Assembly: GCA_038064355.1 (NCBI GenBank)
Contig: JBBTTG010000019.1
Location: 1-53,936 of the forward strand
DNA length: 53,936 nt
Direction of reading: 5' to 3'
Source of the DNA: Patescibacteria group bacterium
GTDB taxonomy: Bacteria > Patescibacteriota > Patescibacteriia > GWA2-47-26
Shown here: piece by piece, positions 19,953-22,707 of the stretch
Layout: each line of letters begins with the position of its first letter
How positions within the stretch are numbered: position 1 is the stretch's first letter
Translations under genes and position numbers: made by a program
Notes under the pieces: model-generated
Seen by the model: only the letters and a program-made list of their open reading frames with translations
Told to the model about the DNA's origin: nothing
The model's database searches: none

Positions 19953-20975
19953 ATGGCAAAAAAATTGAAAGTCGCAATCAATGGTTTCGGGCGTATCGGC
20001 CGCACGGCATTTAAGGCAGGATGGGGGCGCAAGGGGATTTCCTTTGTCGTGATCAATGATCTTACTTCGCCGGAGATTTTGGCGCATCTTTTAAAATATG
20101 ATTCCGTTTTTCGCACCTGGGACCATGATGTCTCGCACGATGAAAAACACGTCATTGTGGACGGAGTGAAGATTCCCGTGGTGGCCGAAAAAGAGCCGAT
20201 GAAATTGCCATGGAAGGAATATAAGGTGGATGTTGTGATGGAGTGTACCGGGCGATTCACCAAGATGGAGCTGGCCAAACAGCATATCGCCGCCGGGGCC
20301 AAACGCGTGGTGATCTCGTCGCCTGCCAAAGAGGTGCCGACGTATCTCATGGGCGTCAATCACGGGGCGGCAAAATCCGGTGATACTATCGTCAATAATG
20401 CTTCCTGCACCACCAATTCTATTGCGCCGGTAGCCGCCATTATAAATGACTGGTTTGGTATAGCCAAGGCGATGATGACGACCATCCATTCGGTGACCGC
20501 CGAGCAAAATCTTGTAGACGGACTTCCTCCCGCGCTGCATCCCGATCTGCGCCGCGCGCGTTCCGCTCTCATCAATATGGTACCCACTTCAACCGGCGCC
20601 GCCAAGGCCGCTGTGGAGGCGATTCCCTCGCTCCAAGGTTTATTCGACGGCATTGCCGTGCGCGTGCCGACGCTCGACGTTTCGCTTTCGGATTTTACTT
20701 TTTTATTGAAGCGCAAAACCACGGCGGATGAGGTGAATGGCGTGTTTAAAAAGGCGACCAAAGACAAACGATGGAAGGGGATCATTGGGGTAAGCGAGGT
20801 GCCGCTCGTGTCTTCCGACTTTATCGGGACGACGTATTCCACTGTCGTTGACCTTGAGATGACGCGTGTCGTGGACGGCGATCTCGTGAAAGTGATGGCG
20901 TGGTATGACAACGAGTGGGGATACAGCATGAGGTTGGTGGATATGGTTGAACATATAGGGGGTTTGATGAAGTAG
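19953..20975 (+). CDS. gap: Glyceraldehyde-3-phosphate dehydrogenase
   Basis: VAINGFGRIGR, active site ASCTTNS, WYDNEWGYS. The start was trimmed to MAKKLKV. Confidence 0.95.
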   Translation: MAKKLKVAINGFGRIGRTAFKAGWGRKGISFVVINDLTSPEILAHLLKYDSVFRTWDHDVSHDEKHVIVDGVKIPVVAEKEPMKLPWKEYKVDVVMECTGRFTKMELAKQHIAAGAKRVVISSPAKEVPTYLMGVNHGAAKSGDTIVNNASCTTNSIAPVAAIINDWFGIAKAMMTTIHSVTAEQNLVDGLPPALHPDLRRARSALINMVPTSTGAAKAAVEAIPSLQGLFDGIAVRVPTLDVSLSDFTFLLKRKTTADEVNGVFKKATKDKRWKGIIGVSEVPLVSSDFIGTTYSTVVDLEMTRVVDGDLVKVMAWYDNEWGYSMRLVDMVEHIGGLMK

Positions 20976-20984
20976 GGCAGTGTT

Positions 20985-21033
20985 TGTCATTGCGAGCCCA
21001 GAGCTTGTCGAGGGGCGTGGCAATCTCGTCTCT
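20985..21033. repeat. Family-C left arm only (solo half element)
   Basis: TGTCATTGCGAGCCCAGAGCTTGTCGAGGGGCGTGGCAATCTCG aligns with the left arm of the element at 21350-21398. Confidence 0.75.
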
Positions 21034-21072
21034 TAAGATAGGAAAGAAGAAAAAAGATATGGTGTTTATATA

Positions 21073-21333
21073 ATGACAAACCAGCGAAACACGACTCTTT
21101 ACACTGGCGTAACGGGCAATTTGGCGAAGCGGGTTTGGGAACATAAAAATAAAGGAGTCAAAGGGTTTACCGAAAAATACAATATCGGTAAACTCGTTTA
21201 TTTTGAGGTGTTTCCTTCGCCATACGAAGCGATACAAAGAGAAAAGCAGATCAAGGCTGGATCGAGGAAAAAAAAGCTGGATCTTATTGCAAAGATGAAT
21301 CCTGAATGGAAGGATTTAAGTGATTCATTGTAG
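21073..21333 (+). CDS. GIY-YIG nuclease family protein (86 aa, COG2827/UPF0213-like)
   Basis: LYTGVTGNLAKRVWEHK...YFEVF...AIQREKQIKAGSRKKK matches the GIY...YIG / R / E core. Confidence 0.85.
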   Translation: MTNQRNTTLYTGVTGNLAKRVWEHKNKGVKGFTEKYNIGKLVYFEVFPSPYEAIQREKQIKAGSRKKKLDLIAKMNPEWKDLSDSL

Positions 21334-21349
21334 GAATTCCTCTCCCCTT

Positions 21350-21436
21350 TTGTTATCGCGAGTCCCGACGCTTCAGTCGGAACGTGGCGATCTCGAATCT
21401 CGGCGGGATTGCTTCGCTCCGCTCGCAATGACAGTC
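21350..21436. repeat. Family-C palindromic element, complete, intergenic
   Basis: TGTTATCGCGAGTCCCGACGC...GATTGCTTCGCTCCGCTCGCAATGACA. Confidence 0.85.
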
Positions 21437-21441
21437 TTGAT

Positions 21442-22707
21442 ATGAACGAATTTTTTCTCAAAACGTCCGAATTTGATTACCCTTTACCCGAGCGGCTCAT
21501 TGCGCAGAAGCCGTTTTCGCCGCGCGATTGTTGCCGTCTGCTTGTTTTGCATCGCGAGAGCGGGAAGATGGAACACCGGAAATTCTTTGATATTACGGCA
21601 TATCTTCGCGCGGGTGATGTGCTTGTGCTCAACGACAGCCGTGTTTTTAAAGCGAGACTTTTTGGAAGATTGTCATTGCGAGGAGCGGGGCGACGAAGCA
21701 ATCCCGTCCAAGTACAAGATCGCCGCGCCTCGCCTGCGGTGAAGCTCGCGATGACAGAGAAAAAGATAGAGGTATTTTTGTTGAGGGAAGTTGATAAAAC
21801 GGGAACATGGGAAGCGTTGGGAAATCCCGGGAAAAAATTAAAAGACGGGGTGAAGGTTTCTTTTTCAAAAACCGTCGAGTGTGAAGTCATCGGGAAGCGT
21901 GAAGGGAAATATCTGGTGCGTTTTAATATCCGCGGCTTGGCTTTTCAAAAGTTTTTGGCGCGGTATGGCCATGTGCCCATTCCTCCTTATATAGGGAAGG
22001 AGCCAAAAGACGCCGGAGACTATCAAACCGTCTATGCGCGGCAGAGCGGGTCAGTCGCCGCTCCGACGGCCGGGTTTCATTTCACGAAACGCCTTTTAAA
22101 AAAGATTGAGCGCATGGGAGTGGAGGTGCGATATATCACTTTGCATGTCGGATATGGAACATTTAAGCTCGTGAAATCCGAAGAGGTGAGCGCGCATAAG
22201 ATGGAAGAAGAGTGGGTGGAAATTTCGGCAGAGACCGCACGAGCGATTTCGCGCGCCAAGAGCGAGGGCAGGAGAGTGGTTGCCGTTGGGACGACGACAG
22301 TCAGAGCGCTTGAGGGATACTCCCTGATTAGTCATCGCGAGGAGCCGAAGGCGACGCGGCGATCCCGTACTCGAAACGAGATTGCTTCTCCGCCAAAGGC
22401 GGATCGCAATGACATTCTTTCGGCCTACTCCGGTCCTGTAAATATATTCATCTACCCCCACACCAAAAATTTTGGTGTGGGGGTAAACCCGGGCTATAAG
22501 TTTCAAATCGTTGACGCGCTGGTGACCAATTTTCACCTGCCAAAATCCACTCTGCTCGTGCTCGTTTCCGCCTTCGCGAAATCCCCCCTCTCCCTTGATG
22601 GGAGAGGGCAGGGTGAGGGTGTCATTTTGATCAAAACCGCCTACCAAGAGGCAATCAAGAAAAAATATCGCGTTTATTCGTTTGGAGATGCGATGATAAT
22701 TGTGTAG
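21442..22707 (+). CDS. queA: S-adenosylmethionine:tRNA ribosyltransferase-isomerase, with four in-frame palindromic insertions
   Basis: FDYPLPERLIAQKP, PIPPYI, YQTVYA, AAPTAGFHFT, VGTTTVRALE, VDALVTNFHLPKSTLLVLVSAF, YRVYSFGDAM. The start was trimmed to MNEFFLK. Confidence 0.93.
   Translation: MNEFFLKTSEFDYPLPERLIAQKPFSPRDCCRLLVLHRESGKMEHRKFFDITAYLRAGDVLVLNDSRVFKARLFGRLSLRGAGRRSNPVQVQDRRASPAVKLAMTEKKIEVFLLREVDKTGTWEALGNPGKKLKDGVKVSFSKTVECEVIGKREGKYLVRFNIRGLAFQKFLARYGHVPIPPYIGKEPKDAGDYQTVYARQSGSVAAPTAGFHFTKRLLKKIERMGVEVRYITLHVGYGTFKLVKSEEVSAHKMEEEWVEISAETARAISRAKSEGRRVVAVGTTTVRALEGYSLISHREEPKATRRSRTRNEIASPPKADRNDILSAYSGPVNIFIYPHTKNFGVGVNPGYKFQIVDALVTNFHLPKSTLLVLVSAFAKSPLSLDGRGQGEGVILIKTAYQEAIKKKYRVYSFGDAMIIV
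21671..21756. repeat. Family-C element inside queA
   Basis: TGTCATTGCGAGG...CTCGCGATGACA, translated as LSLRGAGRRSNPVQVQDRRASPAVKLAMT between the conserved LFGR and KKIEVF. Confidence 0.9.
22330..22414. repeat. Family-C element inside queA, read in a different frame from the first copy
   Basis: AGTCATCGCGAGG...GGATCGCAATGACAT, translated as ISHREEPKATRRSRTRNEIASPPKADRNDI. Confidence 0.9.
22455..22483. repeat. Perfect 14 bp-arm palindrome inside queA
   Basis: CCCCCACACCAAAA-A-TTTTGGTGTGGGGG, translated as PHTKNFGVGV inside the conserved IYP-GYKF segment. Confidence 0.85.
22581..22621. repeat. Family-B GC-rich palindrome inside queA
   Basis: CCCTCTCCC-TTGAT-GGGAGAGGG followed by CAGGGTGAGGG, translated as PLSLDGRGQGEG. 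Confidence 0.8.

Follow-up and report, generated by a model that had tools for sequence, protein, structure and literature searches.

The 53,936 nucleotides (nt) of contig JBBTTG010000019.1 of a Patescibacteria group bacterium (assembly GCA_038064355.1), hereafter called the window, carry between the gap and queA genes a small open reading frame (ORF) for a nuclease of the GIY-YIG type, which is framed by arms of a palindromic repeat termed here family C. The features of the gap-queA spacer are listed below and compared, where it matters, with those of an ortholog found in a related genome (locus L206).

20985-21029, plus strand: left arm, consisting of T, the outer block GTCATTGCGAG (20986-20996), a degenerate apical hairpin, the inner block GTGGCAATC (21017-21025) and TCTCG
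21040-21042, plus strand: AGG at the ancestral position of the start codon; L206 has ATG at the same spot
21040-21333, plus strand: GIY-YIG coding region of the Slx1/UPF0213 type, TAG stop included, assigned by Pfam match, homolog alignment and fold
21334-21403, plus strand: about 70 nt of extra sequence with a degenerate second left arm, absent from L206
21404-21433, minus strand: right arm, which reads GTCATTGCGAG CGGAGC GAAGCAATC on that strand, its two blocks being perfect and its apex a short one of the GCGNAGC type

The left arm starts 10 nt after the stop codon of gap and reads TGTCATTGCGAG, a variable stretch and CGTGGCAATCTCG; it is also kept in L206. The degenerate second left arm is made up of TGTTATCGCGAG ... 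GTGGCGATC at 21351-21392 (arm span 21351-21395), or TGTTATCGCGAG...CGTGGCGATCTCG when the spacer is read in order, and its base stem, ATCGC/GCGAT, represents a compensated change. The right arm reads GGGATTGCTTCG CTCCG CTCGCAATGACA on the plus strand, and the outermost 13 nt on both sides (20985-20997 and 21421-21433) form a perfect inverted repeat around the gene. A preliminary description of this DNA had divided the spacer into a solo arm, a GIY-YIG gene and a complete family-C element; all three were found where it had placed them. It had also proposed that the solo arm and the downstream left arm are direct repeats of each other, and indeed they were about 72% identical and shared the unusual inner block CGTGGC(A/G)ATCTCG. 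The sequence taken as a complete element (21350-21436) is real, but it is better read as the right arm of the gene itself (21404-21433) plus about 70 nt, because L206 has a plain arm-ORF-arm unit. When the 12-mer TGTCATTGCGAG was searched in the window with up to two mismatches, 11 occurrences were obtained versus 4.7 ± 1.9 in shuffled sequences, and none of 100 shuffles reached 11. No Rfam 15 model matched the window at its gathering score or the 20900-21800 region at E ≤ 1, and a scan for promoters and terminators gave nothing above chance. A likeness to the hammerhead ribozyme (GAG-hairpin-CGAA) was dropped, given a different core and the absence of a match to any hammerhead model.

The ORF called at 21073-21333 matched the Pfam GIY-YIG domain (PF01541) with an E-value of 8.7e-13 and 48.8 bits (cut-off 22.6). 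The GIY-YIG assignment of the 86-aa gene previously called at these positions was thus confirmed, but homologous coding begins upstream of the called ATG. In the three-frame translation, the same frame was open from 21037, an in-frame TAA being located at 21034-21036, and read DRKEEKRYGVYIMTN. This stretch includes the first beta-strand as well as the first tyrosine of the GIY motif and aligns with the N-termini of the full-length relatives (M-x-x-K-x-Y-x-V-Y-I-M-T-N). The AlphaFold2 model of the 98-residue frame placed beta-1 at residues 8-14 and the called methionine at residue 13. Residues Y11, Y22, R32, H36 and E69 are conserved in the window reading frame; however, Y11 and beta-1 lie upstream of the sole canonical start, the ATG at 21073, and the 86-aa product would lack both this strand and the first catalytic tyrosine. 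Relatives of the protein have a full catalytic core, and in 80 of the 81 related genes from 80 other genomes an ATG or GTG was found 2-9 codons (mostly 3-6) before the first tyrosine, the single exception being cut off at a contig end. The AGG was present in three other assemblies from other samples (four independent assemblies with that of the window), which ruled out an assembly error and indicated a real mutation. A frameshift at the 5'-end was also ruled out: the reading frame includes the GIY strand and lacks nothing but a start codon.

The lengths annotated for members of this family are not reliable. Many database entries are 130-170 aa long because gene callers extended the ORF upstream through the left arm, giving peptides such as VIASIAKQS or SLRGA..KQS (for example in proteins P0121, P0126 and P0134), and others are 86-87 aa long since an internal methionine was chosen.

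The ortholog L206 had the same tsf-gap-GIY-YIG order and the same insertion site, with 81% protein identity. The comparison of both genes gave a pN of 0.12, a pS of 0.73 and a dN/dS of about 0.05, synonymous sites being close to saturation; the blocks of the arms were identical, whereas the short spacer before the arm had diverged. These values indicate that gene and arms were kept for a long time at a fixed locus, either by selection or by conversion from other copies, and that the window copy is an old, vertically inherited insertion rather than a recent one. Such long retention resembles that of the tyrosine transposases that accompany repetitive extragenic palindromic (REP) sequences, named RAYTs, more than that of a fast-turnover transposon. 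The lost start codon, the degenerate apical hairpin of the left arm and the rearranged right side point to decay in the window lineage. The preliminary description had regarded this locus as an autonomous copy; this is doubtful for an old resident with AGG in the start position and a single usable ATG that removes the GIY strand.

In order to evaluate the gene-arm association in a set blind to the repeats, 80 loci were fetched by protein patterns only from contigs representing one genome per species. Their hosts belonged to Atribacterota, Cyanobacteria, Nitrospirota, several proteobacterial classes, Patescibacteria, Chloroflexi, Bacteroidota/Ignavibacteria, Elusimicrobia, Planctomycetes, Omnitrophota and others. 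The 11-mer GTCATTGCGAG, with one mismatch allowed, occurred 415 times in the 686 kb of these loci, about 11 being expected in random sequence. Two hundred and seventy-one of the matches were located within 250 nt of the gene, while each 250-nt bin elsewhere had 0-9, which corresponds to a density about 30-fold above the flanking background. A family-C arm was found no more than 150 nt away from 80 of 82 genes, the one of the window included, and so the association of GIY-YIG relatives elsewhere with family-C arms, put forward in the preliminary description as a test, was observed across phyla. With only the closest arm on either side taken into account (at most 150 nt away, up to two mismatches, the same 82 genes), the arms faced inward in an arm-ORF-arm layout in 42 cases, outward in 11 and in the same direction in 17, whereas 10 genes had an arm on one side only and 2 had none. 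Of 81 genes, 21 had their stop codon immediately against the right arm's inner block (TGA-GATTGC or TAG-ATTGC), and in 40 of the 81 this block began within 20 nt of the stop. Two size classes of arm-to-arm unit were seen, ORF-less ones of 44-200 nt and ORF-bearing ones of 355-450 nt; the only recurrent ORF in the units was the GIY-YIG gene, and no second enzyme recurred near the repeats.

Protein identity was nearly flat across phyla (0.64 within groups and 0.615 between them), and for 31 of 60 proteins, versus about 10 expected, the nearest neighbour was from the same group. Both vertical descent and transfer seem to have contributed, in a sample that is biased towards close relatives of the query. 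Within the Nostocales group identity was higher (0.77); in its loci L002, L006, L007, L022 and L046 the gene-adjacent arms were outward-facing, and differed in sequence (GTCATTGCGA[T/C] combined with CGNAGG).

The general layout of an arm was Y (T or C in 113 of 127), GTCATTGCGAG, a variable apex and GAAGCAATC, often followed by TC or CAG. It can be drawn as a hairpin of 26-45 nt in which GTC and the base stem ATTGC come first, then a GAG internal loop rich in purines, an apical mini-hairpin of variable sequence (often GCGNAGC) and GAA, and finally the partner stem GCAAT and C. The base stem was ATTGC/GCAAT in 285 arms, ATCGC/GCGAT (the type of the degenerate arms of the window) in 13, ATTAC/GTAAT in 4 and ATGGC/GCCAT in 2, a covariation with a value of 7e-20 in a 2x2 Fisher test, to be read with the non-independence of related copies in mind. 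Among the 54 arms with a 12-nt apex, positions 3 and 9 were G-C in 30, A-T in 15 and C-G in 5 arms, and the next two pairs were tandem A.G/G.A or Watson-Crick. Both stems thus show compensatory changes, and every single arm is a stem-loop by itself. The apex had the form NCG-N(1-2)-AGN' in 148 of 363 unique arms versus 18 ± 4 in shuffles. The sequences GCGNAGC and GCGNNAGC are exceptionally stable DNA mini-hairpins (PMC13037366) and GNA triloops are a class of stable DNA hairpins (PMC3201870), which favours, without proving it, a role of the arms as folded DNA. Two inverted arms make an ORF-less doublet of 60-120 nt similar to MITEs (miniature transposable elements with inverted repeats) and REPINs, and in the gene-bearing form the ORF fills the loop between the arms. 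The two arms of a doublet mostly differed, one having a 6-nt apex and its partner a 12-nt apex, and the loop ends prolonged the long stem as CAG...CTG or TC...GA. Complementarity between the variable parts of both arms was considered and discarded: none was present, and the asymmetry is systematic.

More distant relatives, with 39-61% identity, were obtained by tblastn of the complete records of a plasmid collection (PLSDB), some of which are mislabelled chromosomes. In 11 of 12 of these loci the gene was flanked by hairpins of the frame [G/C]TC-AT(stem)-loop-(stem')AT-C with lineage-specific stems, and altogether 52 hairpins of this frame were counted, versus 0.8 ± 0.8 in shuffles. The stems were the following:

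Planktothrix: ATTCT / ATCCT
N. gonorrhoeae, Aeromonas and Photobacterium: ATTCCCGC
Azospirillum: ATCCCCGC
S. meliloti and R. tumorigenes: ATTCCTGTG / ATCCCTGTG
Neorhizobium and Shinella: ATCCTCGGG
Rhizobium CIAT894: ATCCCAGGG
Spirosoma: ATCCC

The layout was cleanly inward in the Aeromonas, Neorhizobium, Shinella and Rhizobium loci, and the few "arm-less" loci of the set of 80 had arms of the ATTCT/ATCCT type instead. No hairpins of this frame flanked E. coli yhbQ, whose protein has 25% identity. Different protein clades beside different stems in one conserved frame are the pattern expected of an enzyme and its recognition structure, and we consider it the strongest argument against coincidence, to which the preliminary description had conceded that the co-location might be due. 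In Azospirillum lipoferum (L212, NC_016623.1, 254006-257290), the GIY-YIG gene and hairpin doublets lay alone between sufB and sufC, which looks like a typical small selfish insertion into the spacer of the suf operon. The gonococcal relative (48% identity) was found within an array of 11 GTC-ATTCCCGC-N4-GCGGGAAT-C hairpins of the type of the Neisseria repeat dRS3 (L209, NZ_CP119142.1, 1880219-1883473, a 2.17-Mb chromosome labelled as a plasmid in PLSDB). Only the hairpins beside the Neisseria, Aeromonas and Photobacterium relatives fitted the dRS3 consensus ATTCCC-N8-GGGAAT; the window arms, with their ATTGC/GCAAT stem and internal loop, fall outside it. Bentley et al. described dRS3 and the neisserial intergenic mosaic elements (NIME) as Neisseria-specific, possibly recombinase-binding and of unexplained origin, and made no mention of GIY-YIG (PMC1797815).

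Besides the gene-bearing unit, non-coding family-C copies were reported as scattered through the window, two of them inside queA, and this was corroborated by the following ORF-less doublets, for which no strand is assigned:

661-727: doublet of 67 nt, intergenic
21671-21756: doublet in frame in queA, translated as SLRGAGRRSNPVQVQDRRASPAVKLAMT
22330-22414: doublet in frame in queA, from the alignment to QueA orthologs

The two doublets in queA are at sites where QueA of T. maritima (1VKY) has 2 and 8 residues and several orthologs have nothing, and were therefore considered genuine in-frame insertions. The two surface loops of QueA may be either insertion hot spots or sites of very old insertions that were retained. 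A further in-frame insertion of queA (22582-22623, SPLSLDGRGQGEGV), absent from T. maritima QueA and most orthologs, derives from a different palindromic repeat, CCTCTCCC-TTGAT-GGGAGAGG. In the alignment with the distant orthologs P0271, P0272 and P0273, the second site of P0272 had a family-C-like peptide (CHCERPQGAWQS...PRNDN), and the first site of P0272 and P0273 had peptides of another repeat family (PPLSKGERGG and PPFKKGDEGG, respectively). Another family-C doublet was found in frame in uvrC, itself the gene of a GIY-YIG protein, at about residues 343-381 (L138, 879-993). Long ORFs spanning elements were mostly artefacts of high GC content, and among 13 candidates only queA and the uvrC of L138 were convincing.

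In a reverse sampling, 120 metagenome stretches were retrieved by means of the arm pattern and the gene was found in only 4 of them, so that gene-less doublets outnumber gene-bearing units by about 30 to 1. In one of these four loci (L085, 6270-6404), the left arm and the first 32 GIY-YIG codons were joined directly to the right terminus; this arrangement is an internal-deletion derivative, intermediate between both forms and as expected of non-autonomous elements. Together with the excess of ORF-less copies, it supports the earlier proposal that the other copies are non-autonomous. The entire arm-ORF-arm unit was tandemly duplicated in L038 (4936-5735), with a period of 426 nt and two identical copies, and in L026 an ORF-bearing unit and its ORF-less neighbour shared arms and loop ends and differed by the ORF module. 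A doublet and its spacer were amplified as an array of 121-nt repeats in L179 (3908-4975; 8.8 copies, 97% identity) and in L008 (1042-1536), which we interpret as satellite-like expansion and not as independent insertions. Integron attC sites and CRISPR-like arrays were discarded as explanations, given the different consensus and the nature of the arrays, which are duplications in tandem whose spacers are identical.

The nuclease is a minimal stand-alone domain of the Slx1/UPF0213 type, with about 95 aa. The only structures in the Protein Data Bank matched by the family profile were those of UPF0213 proteins, 1ZG2 (1.3e-5) and 1YWL, and the AlphaFold2 model (pLDDT 89) retrieved with Foldseek, in this order, 1ZG2, the Slx1 entries 4XLG, 4XM5, 7CQ2 and 6SEH, and UvrC; the Slx1 matches included complexes with branched DNA. 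Based on these profile and model matches, we assigned the protein to the stand-alone Slx1-like cluster of Dunin-Horkawicz et al., who took the Slx1-like proteins of prokaryotes for repair enzymes inherited vertically and did not report any association with repeats (PMC1564403). The homing-endonuclease model TIGR01453 gave 20.5 bits, far below its cut-off of 56. GIY-YIG was the sole domain of the window protein, which had no transposase domain, and it was covered by no family of NCBIfam or PADLOC nor by an informative one of PHROG, the absence of a PADLOC match giving no indication of membership in a defence system. The family comprised 12,064 clusters (50% identity) at E ≤ 1e-3 and 3,981 at E ≤ 1e-10, and a single relative was detected among 2.9 million viral contigs (IMG/VR).

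Altogether, protein and hairpins co-vary across lineages and both gene and arms are under purifying selection. We are confident that GIY-YIG nuclease and hairpins form a cognate gene-repeat system; that the nuclease drives the spread of the repeats is a proposition for which the chances seem about even. As a whole, the reading that we prefer, and regard as rather probable, is that the window locus is an old, decaying, gene-bearing member of a widespread system of Slx1-type nucleases and cognate stem-loops, comparable to REP/RAYT and with MITE-like ORF-less doublets. The preliminary description had proposed a trans-acting nuclease that mobilises or targets the hairpins; the gene-arm link turned out to be systematic and co-evolving (80 of 82 genes, clade-specific stems), whereas cutting and mobilisation are what we infer from that link. 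Slx1 cuts branched and stem-loop DNA. In the mechanism that we propose, the nuclease would recognise the folded arm, whether single-stranded or in a cruciform, by its conserved GTC-AT...AT-C frame together with the stem specific to the lineage, and would nick at or near it. Copying, spread and homogenisation would then take place through host repair or recombination templated by other copies, in a cut-and-copy manner; classical transposition is not expected, because GIY-YIG enzymes only hydrolyse DNA and perform no strand transfer. It is also possible, although we advance it only tentatively, that the whole superfamily of [G/C]TC-AT(stem)...(stem')AT-C hairpins, that is, family C of the candidate phyla radiation (CPR), Chloroflexi, Cyanobacteria and others, the rhizobial and Aeromonas types and dRS3/NIME of Neisseria, is made, spread or kept by cognate Slx1-like GIY-YIG nucleases. 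This would constitute a second, independently evolved REP/RAYT-like system, based on a hydrolytic nuclease and host repair.

Several results weigh against the preferred reading. Binding or cutting of the arms by the protein is inferred and, without strand transfer, dispersal to new sites has no demonstrated chemistry. The window gene has lost its start codon and is for this reason probably inactive or impaired; the gonococcal frame is likewise open through the GIY strand without an ATG, GTG or TTG start and may be a pseudogene. Moreover, dRS3 is so abundant in Neisseria that proximity alone is weak evidence, and we take this link as a lead. No empty site was found in queA: the insertion is also present in the closest relative (77% identity), and in more distant ones other repeats occupy the same loops. 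No target-site duplication was detected either, the flanking direct repeats of 1-8 nt being at chance level, so that the boundaries given for the elements are approximate. The outward (11) and same-direction (17) layouts fit a single transposon-like unit poorly. On pSA1 of Novosphingobium resinovorum (NZ_CP017076.1), a 1.76-Mb replicon, there were at least 40 canonical doublets, about one per 10 kb in the stretch 970141-1010221 (L220), and no GIY-YIG relative at E ≤ 1e-3; a profile search for the nuclease gene in this 40-kb stretch was also empty, the search having covered this one replicon of the genome. Finally, nearest-neighbour folding energies of the window copies barely differed from those of shuffled sequences (z from 0.1 to -2.7), and it was because of this weak thermodynamic support that we relied on covariation as the structural argument.

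GIY-YIG is a classical homing-endonuclease fold, and the main rival explanation would make the gene a homing-endonuclease-like parasite that cuts the loop of the doublet and is copied in by repair with the arms as homology, while another enzyme disperses the doublets. In the commonest layout the ORF fills precisely the space between the inner blocks of the arms; this, the L026 units that differ by the ORF module, the roughly 30-fold excess of ORF-less copies and even the weak TIGR01453 match would agree with it. However, the gene is not always inside a doublet, as the 28 outward and same-direction loci indicate; the protein has no DNA-binding domain and scores 20.5 against the required 56 bits; and the gene is almost absent from viral contigs. 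A parasite of this kind would not be expected to be fixed at one locus under strong purifying selection, as the window copy is, and the second enzyme that it needs was not found to recur near the repeats. We thus consider this explanation unlikely.

Slightly less probable still would be a domesticated host nuclease that manages hairpin or cruciform repeats, by resolving replication blocks or promoting local recombination, without copying them, its gene staying linked to its substrates. Vertical inheritance at a fixed locus with a dN/dS of 0.05 and the structural similarity to Slx1 are compatible with this, as are the annotation of the distant relative YhbQ of E. coli as a DNA damage response nuclease and the proposal by Bentley et al. 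that dRS3 are binding sites that promote recombination (PMC1797815). Nevertheless, the tight arm-ORF-arm geometry, the tandem whole units of L038, the internal deletion of L085, the solitary insertion between sufB and sufC of Azospirillum and the near-flat identity of 60-70% across phyla are all more typical of selfish elements. As for incidental co-location in permissive intergenic spots, or arms that act only as stem-loops stabilising or processing mRNA, it is true that the repeats cluster and form tandem arrays (L008; L179, 121 nt x 8.8), that they are everywhere in Neisseria and that the arms would fold in a transcript too. This explanation is strongly disfavoured by the comparative data and we judge it very improbable, since arms accompany 80 of 82 genes across phyla at about 30-fold the background density, the stop codon is fused with the arm in 21 of 81 genes, the stems differ by protein clade and the yhbQ control is hairpin-free. 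Neither would the absence of Rfam matches (E ≤ 1, 20900-21800) nor the GNA/GCGNAGC apices, a hallmark of DNA hairpins (PMC13037366, PMC3201870), be expected from it.

If the preferred reading is correct, a candidate function would be available for a large family (at least 12,000 clusters at 50% identity) that has no curated NCBIfam or PADLOC model and whose relatives had been placed under DNA repair in the 2006 survey (PMC1564403). It would also give a candidate partner enzyme to the orphan palindromic elements, in part located in frame in essential genes, of environmental genomes such as those of CPR, and may extend to the dRS3/NIME arrays of Neisseria, whose origin has been unexplained since the first meningococcal genomes. 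Dispersed repeats would then spread with a nuclease of only about 95 aa, the unit of 355-450 nt would be among the smallest gene-bearing mobile units, and so small a nuclease, specific for a defined DNA hairpin, might find use as a tool. For annotation, the repeats create spurious ORFs and N-terminal extensions.

Among known systems, REP/REPIN-RAYT is similar in its short stem-loops with a conserved head and a variable, lineage-specific stem, in the dispersal of inverted doublets, in an enzyme gene flanked by its own repeats and in a repeat class that co-varies with the enzyme clade; these features include possible vertical inheritance at a fixed locus (PMC3116915, PMC3337134, PMC5581495). Nevertheless, RAYT is an HUH/Y1 transposase, while the present enzyme belongs to the hydrolytic GIY-YIG nucleases, has about 95 aa and lacks covalent-intermediate chemistry; the REP head is GTAG instead of GTC-AT; and, unlike in REP/RAYT, one repeat family is common to several phyla and several gene copies per genome are possible. 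MITEs and their autonomous insertion sequences (IS) also have terminal inverted repeats shared by gene-bearing and gene-less forms, far more numerous gene-less copies and internal deletions, but here there is no transposase of a known family and no target-site duplication was detected. To our knowledge, no IS comes close to the small size of this unit (355-450 nt). The Rickettsia palindromic elements (RPE), for which we know of no partner enzyme, are likewise tolerated in frame within conserved protein genes, a behaviour that they share with the repeats in queA and in the uvrC of L138. The GIY-YIG homing endonucleases (I-TevI, Seg proteins) share the catalytic fold and the small, selfish-type insertion in intergenic spacers; in contrast, the present protein has no DNA-binding domain or NUMOD and no association with introns or phages, and belongs by sequence and fold to the Slx1/UPF0213 lineage and not to that of homing endonucleases (PMC1564403). 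Its closest solved structures and sequences are those of Slx1/UPF0213 proteins (BH0048, 1ZG2; EF2693, 1YWL; E. coli YhbQ), with which it shares the minimal stand-alone domain, although YhbQ is only 25% identical and its gene has no flanking hairpins. The dRS3/NIME repeats have the GTC-AT...AT-C frame in common with family C but a different stem and no internal loop, and the only link made for them had been to a phage recombinase, with no GIY-YIG gene involved (PMC1797815). No description of the GIY-YIG/arm association was found in the full-text literature, whose coverage was incomplete, so that a prior description may exist elsewhere. By analogy, the system looks like a repeat-enzyme partnership of the REP/RAYT kind, apparently undescribed, in which an unrelated enzyme is associated with unrelated repeats.

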